Shown here piece by piece: positions 2,478 through 58,819 of a DNA stretch of 64,000 nucleotides. This DNA is from an uncultured Acidimicrobiaceae bacterium. GTDB taxonomy: Bacteria; Actinomycetota; Acidimicrobiia; Spongiisociales; ZC4RG35. The notes under the pieces were generated by a model. The model was given only the letters and a program-made list of their open reading frames with translations, ran no database searches and had not been told where the DNA came from. Numbering within the stretch: position 1 is the first letter of the stretch; every line of letters starts with the position of its first letter. The position numbers were made by a program, and so were the translations under genes. The DNA lies in assembly GCA_964558575.1 (NCBI GenBank), contig CAZLEQ010000005.1, positions 3,743 to 67,742 on the forward strand, written 5' to 3'.

Positions 2478-3909
2478 GCCGTTACTGGTGGTGGACGATC
2501 GCGTGGTGGCCGCGGCCACTGACGACGTGCTCTCCGTCGGGGTCAGCCCTGGAATGCCCCGTCGCGCGGCAGAGGCATTGGCTCCTTTCGCCACGGTGAT
2601 GACGAGAGACGTGGAGGAGGAGACCCGCAGATTCGAGCCGGTGGTCACCACAGTGGAAGATCTCGTGCCCAAGGTCGAGGTGGTCGCTCCTGGTCTGCTC
2701 TTCGTCCCCATCAGCGGTGCGGTCCGTTTCTACGGCGGTGAGGAGGCGCTGGCGAGGAAGGTGAATGAGGTGATGAATGGTTTCCTCCCCCAGGAGCGAA
2801 GCGAAGGAGGAGGCTGGACCTTCAGGATCGGGGTTTCGGACGGTCCCTTTGCCGCCCGATGGGCGGCCGCCACTGCCTCACCTGGAGAGCCTCTGATCGT
2901 CACCGACACCATCTCTTTTCTCTCCCAGCTCGATCTCAGCGCCCTTCGGGAGGCGATGGGTGGTGAGGAGATGATCGATACCTTCCGTTGGCTGGGCATC
3001 TCGACTCTCGGTGACCTTGCTCGCCTGCCCCGCGAGACTCTCGCCTCTCGGTTCGGCAACCCGGGTCTGCTGGCTCACCGTCTCGCCAGCGGTGACGACC
3101 GCATGATCCAGCCACGGGAGATCCCAGGTGACCTGATGGTGGAGCTGGCCTTCGAAGATCCGCTGGAGAGTCTCGACGCGGTTGCCTTCGCCGGCCGCCA
3201 TCTGGCCGAGAAGCTGTTGGGGAAGCTCCGTCCCTGCGGGCTGGCACCTCACGCGGTGACCATCAGCGCAGAGTCTGCACTGGGGACGGCGAGGTCGAGG
3301 ACATGGCGCTCGGCCGACCCGTTCACGGGCAGGGAACTGAGTGACCGGGTGTGGTGGCAGCTCAGGGCATGGGTGGAGTCGTCCGGGATCCCGGGCGGGA
3401 TCACCGCGTTGTGCATCGTCCCGGCCGAGCTTTCCGGGGAAGGTCGCCAGCTCGGGCTCTTCAGTGACGAGTCGTCGTTGGTCGAGACCGAGCGCGCCCT
3501 CGCCCGAGCTCAGGCGATCTTGGGCCCTGACGCCGTCCTCCAGGCGAGGGCGCAAGGAGGACGAATGCCGGGAGAGCGGGTCATCTGGTCGCGTTGGGGC
3601 GAGCCGGACACCCCGGAGGATCGCGACTCCGGTGCGCCGTGGCCGGGAGCGACACCATCACCTGCACCAGCCCTGGTGCCTCCCCGTCTCGACCCCATCG
3701 AGGTGGAGTGGGACGGGGGGATGCCTGCCCGGATCAGGTTGGGGTCTAGGTGGGAGCCGGTCCTCACCTGGAGTGGGCCTTGGAGGTTGAGCGGCCGGTG
3801 GTGGGGGGGAGATGGTGAAGCGGACCGCTACCAGATGGTCACCTCGGTAGGCGCTTTCCTCTGTGTGGTGTCCGGGGGCCGGGCTTTCCTCGCCGGCATC
3901 TACGATTGA
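2407..3909 (+). CDS. imuB: ImuB, inactive Y-family polymerase-like protein
   Basis: GVSPGM, FEPVV, LGISTLGDLARLP HhH, QLGLF clamp-binding motif, C-terminal GPWRLSGRWW. Confidence 0.9.
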   Translation: MKVRTLCVWFPMWSLTRPDAPSGEPLLVVDDRVVAAATDDVLSVGVSPGMPRRAAEALAPFATVMTRDVEEETRRFEPVVTTVEDLVPKVEVVAPGLLFVPISGAVRFYGGEEALARKVNEVMNGFLPQERSEGGGWTFRIGVSDGPFAARWAAATASPGEPLIVTDTISFLSQLDLSALREAMGGEEMIDTFRWLGISTLGDLARLPRETLASRFGNPGLLAHRLASGDDRMIQPREIPGDLMVELAFEDPLESLDAVAFAGRHLAEKLLGKLRPCGLAPHAVTISAESALGTARSRTWRSADPFTGRELSDRVWWQLRAWVESSGIPGGITALCIVPAELSGEGRQLGLFSDESSLVETERALARAQAILGPDAVLQARAQGGRMPGERVIWSRWGEPDTPEDRDSGAPWPGATPSPAPALVPPRLDPIEVEWDGGMPARIRLGSRWEPVLTWSGPWRLSGRWWGGDGEADRYQMVTSVGAFLCVVSGGRAFLAGIYD

Positions 3910-49298: not shown

Positions 49299-50318
49299 TC
49301 AAGCGGCGAGTGAGATCGTGGCCACCGCCCCGAGATAGGCGAGGAGGAGGACGAGGGCGTCCGGCTCCAGTCGCCGAATCCGGGCCTCGGTGCCTCCCAC
49401 GATCGCCGCCACCGCGAGCGCGGTGAGCAGGATGGCACCCAACGCCGCCACTGCCAGCGCGGGAGAAACCGCAGCCAGGATCGGCCCCTCCGTGTAAGCG
49501 AGGTCGGCGAAGAAGAGGATCGACATGTTGGCGGCGTTGCTGCCGAAGAGGTTGCCTGCGGCGAGGTCGTATGCGCCGATCTTGACCGCGGCGAGAGACG
49601 CGGAGAGCTCCGGGAGCGATGTGGTTATGGCGAGGAGCAGTACTCCGATGGAGGTCTGGGCGATACCGGTGAGCTCGGCGATCCTCTCCGCACCGAGGGT
49701 CATCACAGGGGCGGCCATCAGGATGAACGACGCGGCCACTCCAAATCGGATCGCCAGACCCCGTACCGACACTTCGCCCTCGTCCACGTGCAATCCGGTG
49801 GGTTGGAGCAGGGCGGGGGCGTCGTCCTGAAAGGCTGTACGGGGCAATGCGGGGGAGCGACGGAACCAGGCGACCGCGATCACATAGAGGACGAAGATCA
49901 GGATCGACGTGATCCCCACCCAGCCGACCGCCGGTTCGGAGGAACTTTGCATTCCCACAGCCGCCAGCGCGGTCAGCACGATGGCGACCGCGGCGACGCG
50001 GGCGTGTCCCAACTCGACCACGGGCCAGACCTTTCCCCGATGGCGGAGGTCGATGAACGCGAGGATGGCCATGTTGGCCATGGAGGACCCGAACAGGTCT
50101 CCCACGGCGAGGTCGGGAGCTCCGGCCGCGGCGGCGGTTATGTCAGTGATCAGCTCCGGGAGCGAGGTGGCGAAGGCCAGTACGAGAGTCCCCACGAACA
50201 GGCCGCCGAGCCCGGTCCGCTCGGCGATCTCGTCGCCATAGGCGGCGAGCCTGGAACCTGCCATCACCACGATGGCGGCCATGACCAGGAACACGAGAGC
50301 TGCGAGGGGGAGAGTCAT
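49299..50318 (-). CDS. Sodium:calcium antiporter (CaCA family)
   Basis: Two alpha repeats ATSLPE / TTSLPE, GDLFGSS / GNLFGSN. Confidence 0.9.
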   Translation of the reverse strand: MTLPLAALVFLVMAAIVVMAGSRLAAYGDEIAERTGLGGLFVGTLVLAFATSLPELITDITAAAAGAPDLAVGDLFGSSMANMAILAFIDLRHRGKVWPVVELGHARVAAVAIVLTALAAVGMQSSSEPAVGWVGITSILIFVLYVIAVAWFRRSPALPRTAFQDDAPALLQPTGLHVDEGEVSVRGLAIRFGVAASFILMAAPVMTLGAERIAELTGIAQTSIGVLLLAITTSLPELSASLAAVKIGAYDLAAGNLFGSNAANMSILFFADLAYTEGPILAAVSPALAVAALGAILLTALAVAAIVGGTEARIRRLEPDALVLLLAYLGAVATISLAA

Positions 50319-52959
50319 GTGGCGGCGGTGATGTTGGCCCATCCGGATGCGGCCGGTTGGAAATCCGCACCAGAACCATCGAGAAAAGGGCAGCTCCTAC
50401 GGTGCAAACCATCTCCACGAACCCCAGCGGCGTCGTCCTGAACAACGTGTTGCCCGTTTCCGTGTAGACCACGGCGAGATGGAGGGCCGTGGATCCGATG
50501 AGCGCGGTCCACATCAGCTTGGGCAGCGAGATCACCGCCCCATGTCTAGTGGCGGCCGCGGCCCGGACGTTGACCGCGTGGAGGAGCTGAGACAGCACGA
50601 GGGTTGTGAACACCATGGTCTGGACCGTTGCTTGGTTGTGACCCAGGGCGAACGCTCCGATCGACATCGTCACCACCGCAGCCGATGCGAGTAGTGCACC
50701 TTGTATGAGGAGCAGGATCGTGTTCCGAGCACTGAGGACGTCACGACCGCATCCGGGTGGGTCACTCATCAGATCTCGGGTGGGGCGGTCCATCCCCAGA
50801 GCGATGGCGGGGAGGGAGTCAGAAACGAGGTTGACCCACAGCAACTGCACCGCGAGCAGAGGCTCCCCGAGTGAGCCGAACACCAAGAAGCCGAGCATCA
50901 CGTATATGACCTCGGAGGCGTTGGCAGACAGTAGATAGTGGACCACATTTCGCAGATTGGCGAACAGCCTCCGCCCCTCTGCGATGGCGGCGACGATCGT
51001 GGCGTAGTTGTCGTCCGTTAGCACCATCGCCGCCGACTCGCGGGCGATGTCCGTGCCAGACCCCATTGCCACCCCGATGTCGGCTCGATGGAGCGCAGGG
51101 GCGTCGTTGACCCCGTCGCCCGTCATGGCCACCGTGGCGCCGCGCCGCTGCCAGGCTTCGATGATCTTGACCTTGTCCGCGGGATCGACCCGGGCGTACA
51201 CGCGAATCTGCTCGACCGAGTCAGTCAGTTCGTCGACGGTCATCCTGGCAAGCTCGGCACCCGCGATCACCTCTCCCCGGTCGAGGCCAACCGCGTCCGC
51301 GATGGCAGTGGCCGTCGTCGCGTGATCCCCGGTGACCATGACGGTCCGGACTCCGGCTCGGGCCGCCCGGGCAAGGGCGTCAGGAACTTCCGCCCGCACT
51401 TTCTCACGGAGACCGATAGTGGCGATGAAGGTCAGTTCGTACTCTTCGTCGGCGGGGTCGTCAGGGAGTTCGTCGAGTTCTCGCATGGCGAAGGCGAGGG
51501 GGCGCATGCCGCCTGCTGCCAGTCTCTCGGCGACCTCACGGATCCTGTGGCTACCTTGATCGGCGATGTGTTGGTAGCCACCATCGGCGAGGAGGCGAGC
51601 GGAACGCTCGAGCAACACCTCGGGTGCGCCCTTCACCAACAGGACGTATCGGCTGCCGTCCCAGTGGACAGTCGACATCCGCTTCCGACGGGCATCGAAG
51701 GCCGCTTCGTCCCGCCGGGGCAGCTCTTTCACCAGCTGGCTGACCAAATCGGGTGAGGCCAACGAGCGGAGGAGCGCCACCTCAGTCGGGTCGCCCTGCC
51801 AGCCCTGCTCGGTTCGGTAGGCGTTGTTCACCAGGACTGCGACCGCTCGCAGCCATCCGACCCCAGGATCGTCCCGGGTGAGGAGACTCAGCCCCTCTCG
51901 TCCGTCTGCCATCACCACCTCACCCACCTCGAGGTCGGGGGCGGTCAGTGTTCCCGTCTTGTCCGTGCAGATGACGTCGACCGCGCCCAGCGCCTCGACG
52001 GCAGGGAGCCGACGCACTATCGCATTGCGGTGGGCCATCCTCTGCATACCCCCGGCGAGGCTCACTGTGATGACGGCAGGCAGCCCTTCGGGGATCGCGG
52101 CTACTGCCAGCGCCACCGCGGTCAGGATCATCGACTCGATGGGGAAATCTCGCGCAGTGCCCGCCCAGAAGATCAGCACTGCGGCAAGACTCGCCACCAT
52201 GGCGAGTCGTCGCCCGATGCGGGCCAGTTCGATCTGAAGGGGGGTGCGAGGTTGCTCGTCGCCAAAGAGCTCGGCGATATGGCCGATCTCCGTCGTCATG
52301 CCCGTTGCCGTCACCACCGCCCGCGCTCTCCCCGACACCACGGTGGTCCCGGCATGGATCATGGAGCTGCGGTCACCGATCGCGGCGTCGACGACTGCGG
52401 GCTCCGTGGATCTGGCCACCGGCACGGACTCGCCAGTGAGGGCGGCCTCGTCGACCACCAGGCGAATCGAGTCGAGTATCCGGGCATCCGCCGGCACGCG
52501 GTCGCCGGCCTCGACGAGGATCACGTCGCCCGGGACCAATATCTCAGCAGGTATCCGACGTACCGTTCCGTCACGGACGACCGTGGCCTCCAAGGCCCCG
52601 AGGTCGCGAAGACGATCGAGAGATGTCCTGGCCTTCGTCTCCTGGACGTAGCCGACCAGGGCATTGAGCACGACGATGGCACCGATTGCCGCCGCATCGA
52701 TCCAAGCCTGGAGCAGGACTCCACTGGCAACGGCGGCGATGATGAGGAGCCAGATCAGCACGTCCCGGAACTGATCGATGAAACGCCGCATCCGTATCCA
52801 TCTCTCAGGCTCTCGGAGGCGATTCGGGCCGTGAACCTCGATCCGATCGGTGGCTTCGGCATTGCTCAAGCCGCGAATCGGGTTCGAGCCCAGACGGGCG
52901 AGAGTGTCCTGGACGCTCAGTCTGTGCCAGGCAGAGTCGGTCGGTCCGTCCTCGTTCAT
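50143..52959 (-). CDS. Cation-transporting P-type ATPase (type IIA, CtpF-like)
   Basis: TGES, PEGLP, DKTGT, KGAPE, TGDH, GDGVND. Confidence 0.93.
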   Translation of the reverse strand: MNEDGPTDSAWHRLSVQDTLARLGSNPIRGLSNAEATDRIEVHGPNRLREPERWIRMRRFIDQFRDVLIWLLIIAAVASGVLLQAWIDAAAIGAIVVLNALVGYVQETKARTSLDRLRDLGALEATVVRDGTVRRIPAEILVPGDVILVEAGDRVPADARILDSIRLVVDEAALTGESVPVARSTEPAVVDAAIGDRSSMIHAGTTVVSGRARAVVTATGMTTEIGHIAELFGDEQPRTPLQIELARIGRRLAMVASLAAVLIFWAGTARDFPIESMILTAVALAVAAIPEGLPAVITVSLAGGMQRMAHRNAIVRRLPAVEALGAVDVICTDKTGTLTAPDLEVGEVVMADGREGLSLLTRDDPGVGWLRAVAVLVNNAYRTEQGWQGDPTEVALLRSLASPDLVSQLVKELPRRDEAAFDARRKRMSTVHWDGSRYVLLVKGAPEVLLERSARLLADGGYQHIADQGSHRIREVAERLAAGGMRPLAFAMRELDELPDDPADEEYELTFIATIGLREKVRAEVPDALARAARAGVRTVMVTGDHATTATAIADAVGLDRGEVIAGAELARMTVDELTDSVEQIRVYARVDPADKVKIIEAWQRRGATVAMTGDGVNDAPALHRADIGVAMGSGTDIARESAAMVLTDDNYATIVAAIAEGRRLFANLRNVVHYLLSANASEVIYVMLGFLVFGSLGEPLLAVQLLWVNLVSDSLPAIALGMDRPTRDLMSDPPGCGRDVLSARNTILLLIQGALLASAAVVTMSIGAFALGHNQATVQTMVFTTLVLSQLLHAVNVRAAAATRHGAVISLPKLMWTALIGSTALHLAVVYTETGNTLFRTTPLGFVEMVCTVGAALFSMVLVRISNRPHPDGPTSPPPHDSPPRSSRVPGHGRHRGDGRFQARRLWRRDRRADRARRPVRGDSRTGLRHLAPGADH

Positions 52960-53041
52960 CCTCCCGAAATCCTGCCGTTTGCCCCTGATGGCCGGAGGAG
53001 AAGTAGGCCATTGCTCCGGGTGAGGGACGTCCCGTTCCCGG

Positions 53042-54064
53042 TCAGGTGAGGAACCAACTGGCTTCCCGGTAGGTGTCCAGGTCGAGGTGTCGGGGCCTGG
53101 CAACGGCTTCCGCCATGTCGACGGGGACGATACGGTTGCCCCGGAGCGCAACCATCAACCCGCTCCTCCCCTCCATGGCCAACTCGGTCGCCTGCACTCC
53201 CATGCGCGTTCCGAGCATCCGGTCGAATGCGGTGGGGGTTCCCCCACGCTGGAGGTACCCCAGGATCGTCGGTCGGGCCTCGTACGTGGTGAGACGCTCG
53301 ATCTCGGACGCCACCTCCTGGCAGACCCCTCCGATCCGGGTGAACCCATAGGGATCGGTTCCCGTCTCCGAGATTGCGCCGCTCGGCCCCGGGGTCCCCT
53401 CTGCCACCACGATCACGGAGAAGTCGTACCCCGACTCGTGGCGGGCGACGATCCTGCGGGCCAGGTCTTCGTAATCGACCTCCACCTCCGGCACCAGAAT
53501 GGCCTGGGCCCCTCCCGCCATCCCCGCCGCGGCGGCGATCCACCCGGTGGTGCGGCCCATCACTTCGATCACCATGATCCGGTTATGTGACTCGGCCGTG
53601 GTGGCCAGTCGATCGATGGCGTCGACGACTATCTGCACTGCGGTGTGGAATCCGATGCTCACGTCGGTCCCGTCGATGTCGTTGTCGATGGTCTTCGGGA
53701 CTCCGACGATGGGGAGCCCCTCCCGCTCCAGGTGGATGGCCGTGCGCAGCGACCCGTCCCCTCCGATCACCACCAGGGCGTCGATCTCGTGCTGTTCCAC
53801 CGTATTGCGAATGGACTCATAGCCGTCGCCGTGCTCATACGGATCCTGGCGCGATGTGCCCAGGATCGTGCCGCCTCGACCCACCACGCCCCGCACGTCG
53901 TCCCTGGTCATGGGGCGGGTCGTCCCCTCCATGAGGCCGGCCCAGCCTTCCTCGATGCCGACCACCTCCCGCCCCTCGGCGGTGGCCCTGGTCACCACCG
54001 CCCGAATGGCTGCGTTGAGGCCCGGGCAGTCACCCCCTGCGGTGAGGACGCCGATGGAGCCCAT
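53042..54064 (-). CDS. pfkA: ATP-dependent 6-phosphofructokinase
   Basis: GGDCPGLN, GGTILGTSR, GGDGS, PKTIDND, EVMGR, LQRGG. Confidence 0.95.
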   Translation of the reverse strand: MGSIGVLTAGGDCPGLNAAIRAVVTRATAEGREVVGIEEGWAGLMEGTTRPMTRDDVRGVVGRGGTILGTSRQDPYEHGDGYESIRNTVEQHEIDALVVIGGDGSLRTAIHLEREGLPIVGVPKTIDNDIDGTDVSIGFHTAVQIVVDAIDRLATTAESHNRIMVIEVMGRTTGWIAAAAGMAGGAQAILVPEVEVDYEDLARRIVARHESGYDFSVIVVAEGTPGPSGAISETGTDPYGFTRIGGVCQEVASEIERLTTYEARPTILGYLQRGGTPTAFDRMLGTRMGVQATELAMEGRSGLMVALRGNRIVPVDMAEAVARPRHLDLDTYREASWFLT

Positions 54065-54136
54065 CAGTAAGTCGTCTGCGTCACGGCCGAGCGATTGTAG
54101 ATGGTGTCCGGTCACCTCATGGGCCGCGCCACGAAA

Positions 54137-54181
54137 CAGGGACTTTCGGCCCTAGACGACTTGGGGTGATGCTGGTATGTT
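54137..54181. promoter_or_regulatory. DosR-type box abutting a sigmaA-like promoter
   Basis: CAGGGACTTTCGGCCCTAG 54137-55; TAGACG (54153-58)-N17-TATGTT (54176-81) on the + strand. Confidence 0.7.
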
Positions 54182-54189
54182 CCGCAGCT

Positions 54190-54325
54190 GAAGAGCCCGA
54201 GGTGTGAGAACGGGTACCAGGTGACTGCCTGGTTGAGACCGAGACCATAGGAGTCCCGGGACCGTAGAACCTGAACCGGTTGATACCGGCGTAGGAACTC
54301 ATTCATCGGGCTCTTCTTCTTTCTT
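54190..54325 (+). ncRNA. TPP riboswitch aptamer with extended closing stem and pyrimidine tail
   Basis: ACGGG...GGT-TGAGA...GACCGT-AGAACCTGA-ACCGG-TTGAT-ACCGGCGTAGGAA; P3 ACCAGG/CCTGGT; outer stem GAAGAGCCCGA/TCGGGCTCTTC. Confidence 0.85.
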
Positions 54326-54420
54326 GCTCCCTCCGTGTTCTGATCGAAGGGGCTTCCGGCCTGCGGCATTCGGGACCTGCTCCCATAGCCGTCTCGTCCG
54401 TTGCGGGCGATGCTCGACGG

Positions 54421-54681
54421 GTGAGACCCGGAGAAATTCGCCAATTGCTCGTCGATGTCGTCGTCGGCACCCTGATCGGGGGGATCGTGGGTGGAATCCT
54501 GGCGGTCAACCTGGTCATCTACTACGGCCTGGAGCGCGGTTACGAGTCCAGCTTCGCGGAGATCTTCGAAGCGAGTGTCGTCCTGGGCACGATCGTGGTA
54601 GGGGTTCTGGTCGCCTTCCCGGTACTGGGCGTGGTGATGGCGCGGCGGCGGAGGGCGCGAAGCCGAACCAGTGTCGGATGA
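54421..54681 (+). CDS. Small 2-TM hypothetical protein
   Basis: 86 aa, two hydrophobic helices, basic C-terminal tail. Confidence 0.6.
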   Translation: MRPGEIRQLLVDVVVGTLIGGIVGGILAVNLVIYYGLERGYESSFAEIFEASVVLGTIVVGVLVAFPVLGVVMARRRRARSRTSVG

Positions 54682-54683
54682 GC

Positions 54684-55145
54684 TCAGTCGCCGCCTGCGA
54701 TATCGACGTTGAAGGCGTCGAACAGAAGCTCTGCCCCTGACTGGCGATGGAGTGTCAGCCGGACGAGGAGAGCATTCACCCTGCGACGCAGCATCTGTGT
54801 CGACCAGTCGGCGGTCATACTCAATGCCCGATGACAAGCCGACTCCAGGGAGCGATGCTCGTCACGGAGCCGCTCCACCGCAGGCTGCAGATGTGGCGCC
54901 CGGTCGAGGATCTCGGCGAACAAGCCGTCCTCCGCCTCGATCTGGGCGGTGTGATCACTCAGTGCCGCTTCCAGATGCGAGAGAGCGGTCTCGATGTCCA
55001 TTCTCCAATCGGCGGCGCCGCTGGGCCGGGCGACGGCCCGCTCCAGACCTGTCATCGCGTGGTAGAGCTCCTGGCGCCGGCTGACCACCTGGTCTTGGGT
55101 ATCGTCCGATGGCCAGCTGATGTCGTCAGCTTGGAATTCGCTCAT
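54684..55145 (-). CDS. Hemerythrin-like domain protein
   Basis: H...E..DGLF...AP.L......L..EH, H....E spacing. Confidence 0.7.
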   Translation of the reverse strand: MSEFQADDISWPSDDTQDQVVSRRQELYHAMTGLERAVARPSGAADWRMDIETALSHLEAALSDHTAQIEAEDGLFAEILDRAPHLQPAVERLRDEHRSLESACHRALSMTADWSTQMLRRRVNALLVRLTLHRQSGAELLFDAFNVDIAGGD

Positions 55146-55212
55146 GGCCGCGATGATGCAGCACCGGGGTGATCGGGCAAGGGCACAATGGCCCAATCTT
55201 CGGGCCGTTCGG

Positions 55213-55638: not shown

Positions 55639-55657
55639 TAGGGGACTTTCGGCCGTG
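55639..55657. promoter_or_regulatory. DosR-type box
   Basis: TAGGGGACTTTCGGCCGTG shares 13 bp GGGACTTTCGGCC with the 54139 site. Confidence 0.7.
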
Positions 55658-55711
55658 GTGGCAGACCGCCGCGGGCCCGAAGATGGAGGCACAGATGCCA
55701 AGGAGGATGAC

Positions 55712-56559: not shown

Positions 56560-57015
56560 TTGTTCGTCGAGTACACGACCAAAGTCGAGGCGGGTCTCTC
56601 GCATGTGGAGAAGAGTCTCGACCGGGTCCGGTCCAGTCTGGAGGAGTGGGCTGACATCGCCTATCGGGAGGGTGAGCAGTTGAGGGCACGGGTCGGCCCG
56701 TCGGCGGGAATCGCCCGGGAGGTGAAGCTGAAGATTGGCGGCGCCGAGATCCATCGCTCAGGTCTCGTCTATCCAATCCACTGGACGGCCAGTGGCGCCG
56801 GTCTCCTCTTCCCCGAGTTGAGCGCGGACCTGATTCTCTCCAAGTCGGGATCACAGGTCACCCACCTGACCTTACGCGGGACCTACCAGCCGCCACTGGG
56901 ACCCCTGGGCCGGCTCGCCGACCGGATCGTGCTAGGAAGGGTCGCCGACGCCACGGTCGCCGATTGGATGGAGCGACTCGCTACGGCGCTCAGTTCCGAG
57001 ACGGCGAGTCGCTGA
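56560..57015 (+). CDS. Conserved hypothetical protein (hypoxia-island type)
   Basis: LFPELSADL, L.GTY.PPLG.LG..ADR; in operon with the CBS and PNPOx genes. Confidence 0.65.
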   Translation: MFVEYTTKVEAGLSHVEKSLDRVRSSLEEWADIAYREGEQLRARVGPSAGIAREVKLKIGGAEIHRSGLVYPIHWTASGAGLLFPELSADLILSKSGSQVTHLTLRGTYQPPLGPLGRLADRIVLGRVADATVADWMERLATALSSETASR

Positions 57016-58117
57016 CCGGGAAACGCACCTCGACGGTGGTCCCTTCGCCCGGTGTGCTTCGCACCTCCATCCTCCCGCCGAGCCCGTGGGCCCGGGTCCG
57101 CATGCTCGCCAGTCCCATCCCCGCTTCCGAGGGCCGAGCGTCGTCGAACCCGATTCCGTCGTCGCTGACCAGCAGCACGACGTGGTCGTCATCTCGCCCG
57201 AGGCGGATCTCGACGTTCTCCGCGTTGGAGTGCCTGAGGGCGTTGGACAGGGCCTCGGTCAAGATCAGGAGCAGCTCGTCGTCGGAATCGTGGCTCTCGA
57301 ACGCGTCGAGAGTGAGCCGGACCCGCGCCGGGTAGACAGACCCCATTCGGGCGACCAGCGCCTGGACCCGGTCATCGAGCCCGGTGGTGGGTCGGACCGT
57401 CTCCCTCAGCTCGAACACATAGTGACGCAGGCGATTCACCGCCTCGTCGAGGGTGTCGACGGACCTGTCGAGGAGCTCGGCGACGCCCTGGTCGTCCACC
57501 TGCGAGACGAGACCCTGGAGACCGAGACCAACGGCGAACAGATCCTGGATCACGGAGTCGTGTAGGTCGCGCGCGATGCGGAGACGGTCCTCCATGACCG
57601 CGACGTGTCTGAGCCTCGTCTGGAGACGGGCGGTCTGGATGGCGGCTCCTGCGATGCGCCCCAGGGCCTGGACGACCGCGATGTCCTCGTCGGTGAATCC
57701 ACCCTCCTTGTCGGCCAGATAGAGGTTTCCGTACGTCTCGCCCCCAACGGACACGGGGACACCCAGAAAGGTCCCCATTGGGGGATGGTGCTCCGGAAAT
57801 CCGACTGAGTCGGGATGATCTGTGATCGACTCGAGGACGATGGTCTTGTTCTCCCGTATCACCGTGCCCAACACGCCTCGTCCGGTGGGCGGATGTCCGA
57901 TCCGCTCGGCCTCCTCTCTGGTGATCCCCTGGTAGACGAAGTCGGAGAGGGTCTGGTGGTCACCGAGGACGCCCATGGCCACGTAGGGAGCGTCCGTGGC
58001 AGCCATGACCTCGGCCACAAGCGTGCGGAGGACCCGGCCAAGATCGGCTTCGCCCTCCACCGCGGCGGCCTCGGCGATGAGAGGTGCGATTCGGCTCAGT
58101 TCGCGCCTGTCGGTCAT
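56990..58117 (-). CDS. DosS/DosT-like GAF sensor histidine kinase
   Basis: GFPEHHPPMGTFLGVP heme-GAF, RIARDLHDSVIQ H-box, EALSNALRHS, DDGIGF. Confidence 0.9.
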   Translation of the reverse strand: MTDRRELSRIAPLIAEAAAVEGEADLGRVLRTLVAEVMAATDAPYVAMGVLGDHQTLSDFVYQGITREEAERIGHPPTGRGVLGTVIRENKTIVLESITDHPDSVGFPEHHPPMGTFLGVPVSVGGETYGNLYLADKEGGFTDEDIAVVQALGRIAGAAIQTARLQTRLRHVAVMEDRLRIARDLHDSVIQDLFAVGLGLQGLVSQVDDQGVAELLDRSVDTLDEAVNRLRHYVFELRETVRPTTGLDDRVQALVARMGSVYPARVRLTLDAFESHDSDDELLLILTEALSNALRHSNAENVEIRLGRDDDHVVLLVSDDGIGFDDARPSEAGMGLASMRTRAHGLGGRMEVRSTPGEGTTVEVRFPVSDSPSRN

Positions 58118-58150
58118 GATTCGACGATAACCCCAGCTAGCGTGATCGCC

Positions 58151-58819
58151 ATGGCGCTTCGAGTATTGCTGGTCGACGACCACGAGGTCGTTCGAGCCGG
58201 CCTGAAAGCCCTCATCGACTCCCAGGAGGACATGACCGTGGTCGGTGAGGCGGGCACTGTCGAGGATGGGGTGCGTCGTGTGGGGTTCGACGAGCCCGAC
58301 GTGGTGGTGCTCGACGTGAGACTCCCCGACGGGAGCGGCGTGGAGGCCTGCCGCGACATCAGAGAGCGCTTTCCCGAAGTGAGAGTCCTCATGCTCACCT
58401 CGTTCGCCGACGAGGAGGCTTTGATGGCGGCGATCCTGGCAGGGGCGTCGGGATACGTGCTGAAACGCATCAAGACCGAAGACCTCATTGGCGACATCCG
58501 CAAGGTGGGGTCCGGAGAGTCGCTGCTCGACCCTGAGATGACCGACCGGCTGTTCCAGCGGTTGCGGACCGGGTCGTCCGAGGATCCTCTGCTCGGTCAG
58601 CTCACCAAGCAAGAGAGGACGATCGTCGAGCACATCGCCGACGGGCTCACCAACAAGCAGATCGCCGAGGAGATGTTCCTGGCCGAGAAGACGGTCAAGA
58701 ACTACGTCTCGAACGTTCTCGCCAAGATGGGCATGAGCCGGCGCAGCGAGGCGGCAGCCTACGTGGCCCGCGTCCAGGCCGAGAAGGAGTCCACGGACCT
58801 CCCCGAGAGCTGGAACTGA
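58151..58819 (+). CDS. DosR/DevR-like NarL-family response regulator
   Basis: VDDHEVVRAGL, LDVRLPDGSG, LTSF, GLTNKQIA..MFLAEKTVKNYVS. Confidence 0.93.
   Translation: MALRVLLVDDHEVVRAGLKALIDSQEDMTVVGEAGTVEDGVRRVGFDEPDVVVLDVRLPDGSGVEACRDIRERFPEVRVLMLTSFADEEALMAAILAGASGYVLKRIKTEDLIGDIRKVGSGESLLDPEMTDRLFQRLRTGSSEDPLLGQLTKQERTIVEHIADGLTNKQIAEEMFLAEKTVKNYVSNVLAKMGMSRRSEAAAYVARVQAEKESTDLPESWN

Follow-up and report, generated by a model that had tools for sequence, protein, structure and literature searches.

No riboswitch class is more widespread than that for thiamine pyrophosphate (TPP), and its members are taken as markers of thiamine genes. Other aptamers have their own promoter and terminator and give short or antisense RNAs, including the S-adenosylmethionine elements SreA and SreB of Listeria, the B12-controlled AspocR, and EutX/Rli55; DrrS is a DosR-dependent small RNA. 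Here we describe an element at positions 54136-54325 of a 64,000-nucleotide stretch of DNA (contig CAZLEQ010000005.1, hereafter the window) from an uncultured Acidimicrobiaceae bacterium, in which a near-canonical TPP aptamer is clamped by an 11-bp extension of its P1 helix, followed by a T-rich tail and preceded by a predicted promoter with a DevR/DosR-type box. In the HMP-PP riboswitch (thiS motif), found with thiamine-biosynthetic genes, the aptamer is embedded in the terminator and the ligand is described as suppressing termination; it is the one published aptamer-in-terminator design known to us (PMC6478431). An account of Mycobacterium tuberculosis DevR promoters gives at least two boxes for each promoter, the proximal one lying 33-34 nt from the start site, with DevR contacting a GGGACT motif in each half-site (one G and one C being essential) and with secondary sites that are poorly conserved (PMC3177182). 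A search of the openly accessible literature gave no account of a TPP aptamer from a DosR-type or stress regulon or from Acidimicrobiia; among the listed papers on orphan TPP riboswitches none deals, by title or abstract, with a clamped class, and no report of a riboswitch in a DevR/DosR regulon was found.

The window element has the same architecture and pocket motifs as a canonical TPP riboswitch (RF00059), of which the same genome (G000) holds an example. These two are the only TPP matches in that genome, and the second (G000 C23, L001) scores 61 bits and lies directly 5′ of a gene for a ~350-aa solute-binding lipoprotein of the ATP-binding cassette (ABC) type, followed by a permease, with a 3′ tail complementary to the Shine-Dalgarno region. 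Unlike it, the window copy has an 11-bp clamp extending P1, a start predicted at the clamp, a stress-type operator and a U-rich tail, and unlike canonical TPP riboswitches in general it has no evident separate expression platform and no link to a thiamine gene in any copy examined. By architecture and motifs the aptamer is assigned to the TPP family, and the predicted regulatory unit departs from that family's genomic context and usual platforms. The likeness to the HMP-PP riboswitch is that sensor and intrinsic terminator, the latter putative in the window element, share one hairpin with no evident separate platform; there a very small aptamer sits inside the terminator stem, whereas here the whole ~105-nt TPP aptamer forms the hairpin loop. 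If this reading is true, a full-size aptamer fused with its own terminator is, to our knowledge, a compact design not previously described. The element resembles SreA/SreB, AspocR and EutX/Rli55 in that the aptamer has a promoter and a terminator of its own, here predicted, and that read-through can yield antisense or regulatory RNA; those systems have ordinary terminator platforms and known targets, whereas here the aptamer is of the TPP type and the putative terminator is an extension of P1. The likeness to mycobacterial DevR/DosR promoters lies in a GGGAC-type box ~33-36 nt before the predicted start and a GAF-domain kinase with a NarL-type regulator nearby, and the surrounding gene island recalls the DevR regulon in its P-type ATPase, phosphofructokinase, CBS, universal stress protein (USP) and PNPOx-like genes. 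It differs in having a single box in 12 of 13 copies and a host among uncultured Acidimicrobiia, where regulator binding is putative.

When the sequence was re-read, the promoter, both clamp arms, the tail, the GTG-started 86-aa open reading frame (ORF) and the GATGCT hexamer were all found where the first-pass annotation had placed them (Table 1). Its identification of a TPP aptamer is borne out by a full-length covariance match to RF00059, although the score falls under the gathering threshold. The minimum free energy (MFE) fold of the plus strand, at -62 kcal/mol (z -3.65, equalled by 0 of 200 shuffles), has the clamp closing a TPP three-way junction, and the 11-bp clamp stem, with seven G-C pairs, contributes -21.9 kcal/mol. 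Because the clamp is an inverted repeat the minus strand folds nearly as well (z -3.91), so that the fold alone is not decisive for the strand; this is set by a covariance model made from an alignment of 17 related copies, which scores 161.7 bits on the plus strand against 25.9 on the minus. Aligned to the conserved positions of the model, the pocket motifs UGAGA, CCUGA and GCGUAGG of the window copy are canonical. UGAGA, CCUGA and the GCG of P4-P5 are the TPP contacts in solved structures. A junction G is missing (AGGAA in place of AGGGAA), and on our reading of the structure line of the model it would sit between P4 and P1, outside the pocket.

Table 1. Features of the element and its surroundings in the window, and loci of related clamped elements. 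Positions refer to the window, or to the locus (L) where one is named; GC3, G+C fraction at third codon positions.
Feature	Position	Strand	Basis
DosR/DevR-type box, core near-palindrome GGGACTTTCGGCCC at 54139-54152	54136-54157	+	sequence, position weight matrix, copies
Predicted promoter, TAGACG (54153-54158), 17 nt, TATGTT (54176-54181)	54153-54181	+	sequence, copies
Clamp 5′ arm GAAGAGCCCGA, extends P1	54190-54200	+	MFE fold, alignment of 17 copies
TPP aptamer RF00059, full length, P1-P5	54200-54313	+	permissive Rfam scan (cmscan), 53.1 bits, E 1.8e-9, model positions 1-105 (105/105)
Clamp 3′ arm TCGGGCTCTTC	54306-54316	+	sequence, MFE fold, pairing in 17 copies
T-rich tail TTCTTTCTT, putative U tract, abuts clamp	54317-54325	+	sequence
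Spacer, poorly conserved, holds GATGCT (54408-54413, 7 nt 5′ of GTG)	54326-54420	+	comparison with G013 and G019
86-aa protein with two transmembrane helices, GTG start	54421-54681	+	GC3 0.78, homologues, no Pfam family
pfkA (phosphofructokinase), divergent	53042-54115	-	PF00365, E 4e-105
Hemerythrin-like gene, convergent	54684-55196	-	weak Hemerythrin match, E 0.0022, below cut-off
DevS-like kinase, GAF + HisKA_3 + HATPase_c	56990-58633	-	Pfam domains
NarL-type response regulator, Response_reg + GerE	57815-58819	+	Pfam domains
Class-C loci L052, L023, L035, L024, L045, L033, L053, L061	aptamer at ~1501 or 3001 in each		
Sub-variant clamp GAGCCTG...CAGGCTC, L055	2989-3125	-	
Sub-variant clamp GAGCCTG...CAGGCTC, L063	339-475	+	
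Sub-variant clamp GAGCCTG...CAGGCTC, L085, L087, L091, L097, L098			

The element is one member of a recurring class. Across the 22 sampled genomes of the genus (that of the window is 88.9% complete, in 87 contigs) Rfam gives 45 TPP matches, one to five per genome, which sort by their flanks and downstream genes into 20 ThiB-type copies, 17 copies of the window's kind (class B) and eight of class C. The ThiB-type copies all precede an ABC binding protein and share the Shine-Dalgarno-complementary 3′ tail described above. Class B is present in 11 of the 22 genomes with scores of 44-61.5 bits, many below the cut-off, save for one degenerate copy at 32.1 bits; the sister copies in G013 and G019 reach 52.9 and 61.5 bits. 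The class as a whole scores close to or slightly below the Rfam cut-off and so escapes routine annotation, as in the window. The clamp helix is paired in all 17 copies, with compensatory changes at five of its 11 pairs and a contribution of -16.5 to -22.7 kcal/mol; over the whole structure pair-preserving double changes occur at 20 of 40 predicted pairs, a count among related copies and hence not a formal test, and neither UGAGA nor the CGGG of P2 varies. Outside the RNA, a box of the form AGGGACTTTTGGCCCTAG (at most four mismatches to the 18-mer consensus) lies 52-56 nt 5′ of the clamp in 13 of the 17 copies, and a TATGTT-like hexamer, TA[TGC][AG][GTA]T, stands at constant offset in 14. In the eight class-C copies the clamp is another one, GAGGACC...GGGTCCT, and the promoter, GTTTGA-N15-GGGTA, resembles the SigF/SigB general-stress type; again no thiamine genes are downstream.

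A covariance model built from the 17-copy alignment (R1) was searched over 121 genomes of the same family and finds full-length clamped copies in many genera. The family sample consists of 27 clamped loci from 16 further genera, giving 44 copies together with the 17 from the genus; two unpublished genomes among the 121 contribute no locus to it. At class level the full-length form is concentrated in this family, where 10 of 15 sampled genomes have it, with a few cases in three other families. Read by eye, the upstream elements of the 27 loci comprise eight GGGAC-type boxes, 15 with a TTTCGCG box and TATATT, two of the form GGTTT...GGGTA and two that are unclear. Carrier genomes hold one to three copies, each behind its own stress-type promoter. 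The sequence following the clamp is T-rich, the first 10 nt holding on average 4.3 T over the 44 copies against a background of 18%, and at least four T in 32 of them; the richest tails are those of the lineage formed by G000, G013 and G019, the last two having 7-9 T-rich positions.

Comparison of these three genomes, in which the position of the element is syntenic, shows where the locus is constrained. Clamp and aptamer are 97-98% identical (125/127 to G013, 123/127 to G019), and the predicted promoter is invariant or near-invariant; over the region from box to -10 the identities are 39/45 and 35/45 respectively. The flanking protein genes are less conserved (pfkA 89.7-89.8%, hemerythrin-like 87-88%, CBS 90%), and the spacer after the T tract is only 59-66% identical. 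The 86-aa ORF, which begins 95 nt after the tail and is the first same-strand gene downstream, is 84% identical to its counterpart in G013, where a 1-nt deletion four codons past the GTG leads to an early TGA; in G014, the one other relative in which it follows the element, its frame changes within the first helix. In G019 it is lost through a clean ~265-bp deletion, so that only ~110 nt separate the element from the stop codon of the hemerythrin-like gene convergent with it. The relatives are metagenome assemblies in which single-base errors could account for the frameshifts, but the G019 deletion is unambiguous. These losses showed the predicted small protein to be dispensable, and the comparison as a whole shows the putative element to be under purifying selection independent of the downstream ORF.

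The first-pass annotation had placed a DosR box over the -35, and this holds. The half-sites GGGACT...GGCCC form a near-palindromic box of DevR type that overlaps the -35 of the aptamer promoter and lies ~75-90 nt 5′ of the start of the divergent pfkA. Transcription is predicted to begin at ~54188-54190, at the first clamp base, and the distance to this predicted start from the end of the box (54154-54157) would fit the 33-34 nt of DevR promoters. Within the window the core is the sole exact match to GGGACNNNNGGCCC; the same pattern taken loosely, with one mismatch, shows no enrichment over the whole window (12 matches against 22.7 expected). With a position weight matrix built from the other 12 copies, the window site being left out, the window box is the top match in its genome at 30.3 bits, and the genome holds 13 matches of at least 15 bits as compared with 0-6 in four simulated genomes. 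The top matches precede genes for a USP, a protein with four CBS domains, a phosphoribosyltransferase, a molybdopterin oxidoreductase and a multicopper oxidase, among others. A sigma-70 consensus scanner called no promoter between 53900 and 54900. The hexamers match only eight of 12 consensus positions, and the support for the promoter therefore comes from conservation among copies rather than from consensus matching. A regulator of the DevR/NarL type presumably acts at the box. The genes for a DevS-like kinase and a NarL-type response regulator, whose ORFs overlap each other 2.3 kb from the box, are candidates for its cognate pair.

No recognised thiamine gene lies 3′ of the aptamer in any of the 17 genus copies or the 27 family copies examined, in agreement with the first-pass observation that the locus has none, its neighbours being pfkA and hemerythrin-like, CBS and PNPOx-like genes. 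The only conceivable thiamine links among the 44 are one MFS gene and one Cof-type HAD gene. A near same-strand gene is present in six of the 17 genus copies, namely the small ORF in two, a USP in two (USP start at +43) and a sigma factor in two, of which the ORF 15 nt after the aptamer match in G011 C46 is sigma-70-type by Pfam and that at +71 in G020 C228 was read by eye only. At the family loci a same-strand ORF follows within 13-139 nt in 13, a convergent gene comes first in 11, and nothing lies within ~400 nt in three. Of the 12 same-strand genes tested there, 10 have a Pfam assignment: a class-V aminotransferase, an S9 peptidase, a GreA-like factor, an MFS permease, a cyclase with an AAA domain, an HD-domain LuxR regulator, a DEAD-box helicase, a metallo-beta-lactamase-fold hydrolase, an HAD hydrolase and a serpin. 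An ORF at +13 leaves no room for a promoter, so that the aptamer is its leader and transcription must pass the clamp; on the predicted gene order, read-through must occur in some copies.

The physiology of the genus bears on what such a sensor could report. ThiC and ThiE are above cut-off in none of the 22 genomes, 14 of which are at least 90% complete, and the window genome has a thiamine pyrophosphokinase (TPK) and the ordinary riboswitch before an ABC importer. The genus is thus probably unable to make thiamine and dependent on import, and if so the level of TPP would report external supply.

We propose, tentatively and with slightly less than even confidence, that the element is a TPP sensor behind a hypoxia-type promoter, in which the extended P1 and the U tract form an attenuator embedded in the aptamer that yields a ~135-nt RNA and gates read-through. 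In such a device a NarL/DevR-type activator at the box overlapping the -35 would fire the TATGTT promoter under low oxygen or redox stress. Transcription would start at the first clamp base, the folded aptamer would bring the clamp arms together, and clamp and U tract would act as attenuator to release an end-paired RNA of ~135 nt. How many polymerases pass would probably be set by the TPP-bound state, and these would transcribe the gene for the 86-aa membrane protein and then run antisense into the hemerythrin-like gene. That passage is regulated is argued from the read-through needed in copies with adjacent genes, most simply by TPP. The device would join a stress signal with vitamin B1 status, and other copies would gate a USP, a sigma factor, a helicase and other genes. 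What stands out is a near-canonical TPP aptamer built into dormancy-type promoters, and into other stress-type promoters in sister genera, and placed before regulators, stress proteins or nothing in bacteria seemingly unable to make thiamine. If TPP binding and response are true, abundant soil Actinomycetota that are uncultured would take their vitamin status into account when entering stress or dormancy programmes.

A number of observations weigh against this proposal, and several of them favour instead a stand-alone TPP-binding small RNA in which the clamp is a constitutive terminator or end-protecting stem, the ~135-nt RNA is itself the product, acting by titration or storage of TPP or in trans on RNAs or proteins, and the downstream genes are incidental. 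The score of the window aptamer is below the cut-off: the 64-kb window gives no match at Rfam gathering thresholds, that for RF00059 being 54.3 bits, 1.2 above the window copy. At 12 bits the box matrix is not enriched, with 34 genome matches compared with 49-72 after mononucleotide shuffling and 27-45 for Markov-2 genomes. A second tandem box (above 0 bits, at most 45 nt upstream) is found in one of 13 copies (G008 C81), for which reason the box is called DevR-type and its regulator left as an inference; poorly conserved secondary boxes could escape a matrix scan. A terminator consensus scanner made no call between 53900 and 54900, the hairpin loop being the 105-nt aptamer, so that the terminator-like closure is supported by cross-copy conservation and not by consensus, and only two to four T follow the clamp in G014, G016 C22 and G011 C46, all of which have a downstream gene. 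No RNA run is among the public runs listed as carrying this DNA, which is wholly or partly present in 15 soil-metagenome DNA run rows from six studies; the start site, 3′ end and TPP response of the window element are predictions from sequence. A clamp of 11 bp that contributes about -20 kcal/mol should close whether TPP is present or not, and termination may therefore be ligand-independent; nascent folds of the 17 copies revealed no conserved alternative pairing, the 5′ clamp strand being partnered in eight and free in nine. Any switch could act in either direction, the one published aptamer-in-terminator design being described as suppressing termination. In 11 genus copies (of 17) and 14 family copies (of 27) what lies downstream is a convergent gene or no gene at all, in counts that depend on relatives' ORFs chosen by a GC3 filter and heuristic, and a stand-alone RNA explains these gene-less copies as well as or better than a gated one. 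It also accommodates the retention of the element where the ORF is broken (G013) or deleted (G019), the strongest T tracts in exactly that lineage, and the few copies per genome behind stress-type promoters of their own. We nevertheless regard it as possible rather than probable, since the RNA is a leader in the 13 family and six genus copies with a near same-strand gene, and no target, partner or conserved single-stranded seed was identified. The first-pass suggestion of a stand-alone ~135-nt RNA tied to hypoxia and glycolysis survives in part: the unit is conserved without the ORF and its box recurs and precedes USP, CBS and other hypoxia-type genes, while the tie to glycolysis through the divergent pfkA falls away, most copies having no adjacent pfkA. 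As a more speculative extension, which we think rather unlikely, clamped aptamers in thiamine-auxotrophic Acidimicrobiia would be stress-induced coenzyme sponges and not gene switches. Hypoxia-type, general-stress-type and other promoters would then produce stable, end-paired ~135-nt TPP-binding RNAs that lower free TPP, de-repress the riboswitch-controlled thiamine importer and hold a cofactor reserve through dormancy; if true, this would be an aptamer used for metabolite storage or titration and not for control of an adjacent gene.

Wholly non-thiamine gene associations are also the classic sign of a variant riboswitch, and the aptamer may have drifted to another ligand such as thiamine, a TPP breakdown product or a stress metabolite. 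Scores at or just below the TPP cut-off, the missing junction G, a class-specific AGGAG in the P3 loop and altered P4-P5 in some copies (G016 C23a, G006 C157) would fit, and TPP variants with P4-P5 changes also accept thiamine, according to one report (PMC5473149). In the window copy, however, the pocket motifs are canonical and the missing G lies outside them, and we consider a changed ligand unlikely. An ordinary cis-acting riboswitch for the 86-aa protein, which the first-pass annotation had entertained as a new thiamine-related micro-transporter, would suit the ORF's place as first same-strand gene and its sub-threshold match to ThiW (PF09512; 18.3 bits against a cut-off of 30.3, E 0.0026). 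That match is confined to one of 16 members of the family, and a match to FtsX has an equal score, both being rejected as hydrophobic noise; 17 of 19 homologue loci have no TPP aptamer by Rfam (it is found at two, or at three with R1), the usual partner being a USP, directly upstream of the homologue in eight of 19; and the aptamer is retained where the ORF is frameshifted or deleted. The idea is largely refuted here, and we consider it very unlikely. Decay after loss of the controlled genes, proposed earlier as a deleted thi operon, finds some favour in the layout of G014, where element, USP and small ORF follow one another. This is probably the older arrangement, from which the window lineage would have lost the USP and G019 the small ORF as well. 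Downstream genes of the relatives were checked and no thi gene stands at this position in any relative examined, the USP and small ORF being there instead; moreover the element is more constrained than its protein neighbours and the spacer, also where the small ORF is broken or lost, which rules out a relic to the point that we rate it as highly improbable. Least credible of all is a mobile element resembling a miniature inverted-repeat transposable element (MITE), with the clamp arms as terminal inverted repeats. Inverted-repeat ends and several copies per genome in varied contexts would be expected of it; against it stand the divergence of copies within a genome (G016, G008), the synteny of the three related genomes, arms that co-vary as an RNA helix, and a promoter at constant spacing outside the repeats. 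No near-identical copies were seen among the 44, and transposases and target duplications were not searched for.

The 86-aa ORF itself is, by its homologues, a real conserved small-protein family. Homologues with 41-79% identity occur in 15 of the genus's 21 other genomes and, outside the family, elsewhere in the order; a 16-member alignment has a conserved two-helix pattern. A PDB profile search gave no relative, the best matches being to MscL at E 0.7 only. GATGCT and the GTG are kept in G013 and deleted in G019, and GATGCT is a candidate promoter element.

The gene island around the element holds P-type ATPase, phosphofructokinase, CBS, PNPOx-like and hemerythrin-like genes. The true start of pfkA is probably an ATG near 54064, the corresponding ORF of G013 beginning MGSIGVL. 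The longest ORFs of pfkA and the P-type ATPase (50143-53151, minus strand) overlap by ~110 nt, and the N-terminus of the latter is implausible, being Arg/Pro-rich; the real starts probably lie further downstream, and the two genes look like one operon divergent from the element. The same convergent hemerythrin-like gene is 3′ of the element in G013, G019, G014 and G016 C22. A second box match, GGGGACTTTCGGCCG at 55639-55660 on the plus strand (18.3 bits), which is among the top matches in the genome, lies ~50 nt 5′ of the likely start of the CBS gene (MELRELV, ~55709), which suggests that the same regulator may drive this CBS-domain gene.

Several variants of the element were seen among the copies. 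P3 is usually the variable part of TPP aptamers; at 54245-54262 (alignment columns 60-72) most class-B copies have a purine-rich, AGGAG-like distal P3 loop, which may be a class-specific contact, a seed, or a mark of mere shared ancestry. The sub-variant with the clamp GAGCCTG...CAGGCTC has an altered P4-P5, for example ACCCGAAACGG replacing ACCUGAACCGG, and its ligand specificity may be relaxed or changed. At the family loci that have it (L078-L099) the TTTCGCG box lies ~40-60 nt 5′ of the clamp, in some as a CGCGAAA-N-TTTCGCG palindrome. The clamped element at L010 954-1089 (minus strand; G018 C5:569542-569677) scores 72 bits with R1 and has no Rfam TPP report at E 0.01; it is located ~430 nt downstream of, and on the same strand as, the gene for the small protein, and may be an aptamer that has diverged or degenerated. 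At L058 (~2610-2665, plus strand; G012 C465) a strong separate hairpin, with a stem of ~15 bp and a T tract, stands at most 10 nt 3′ of the clamp and adjoins a convergent PEP-utilising-enzyme-like gene, as a second terminator or a shared bidirectional one.

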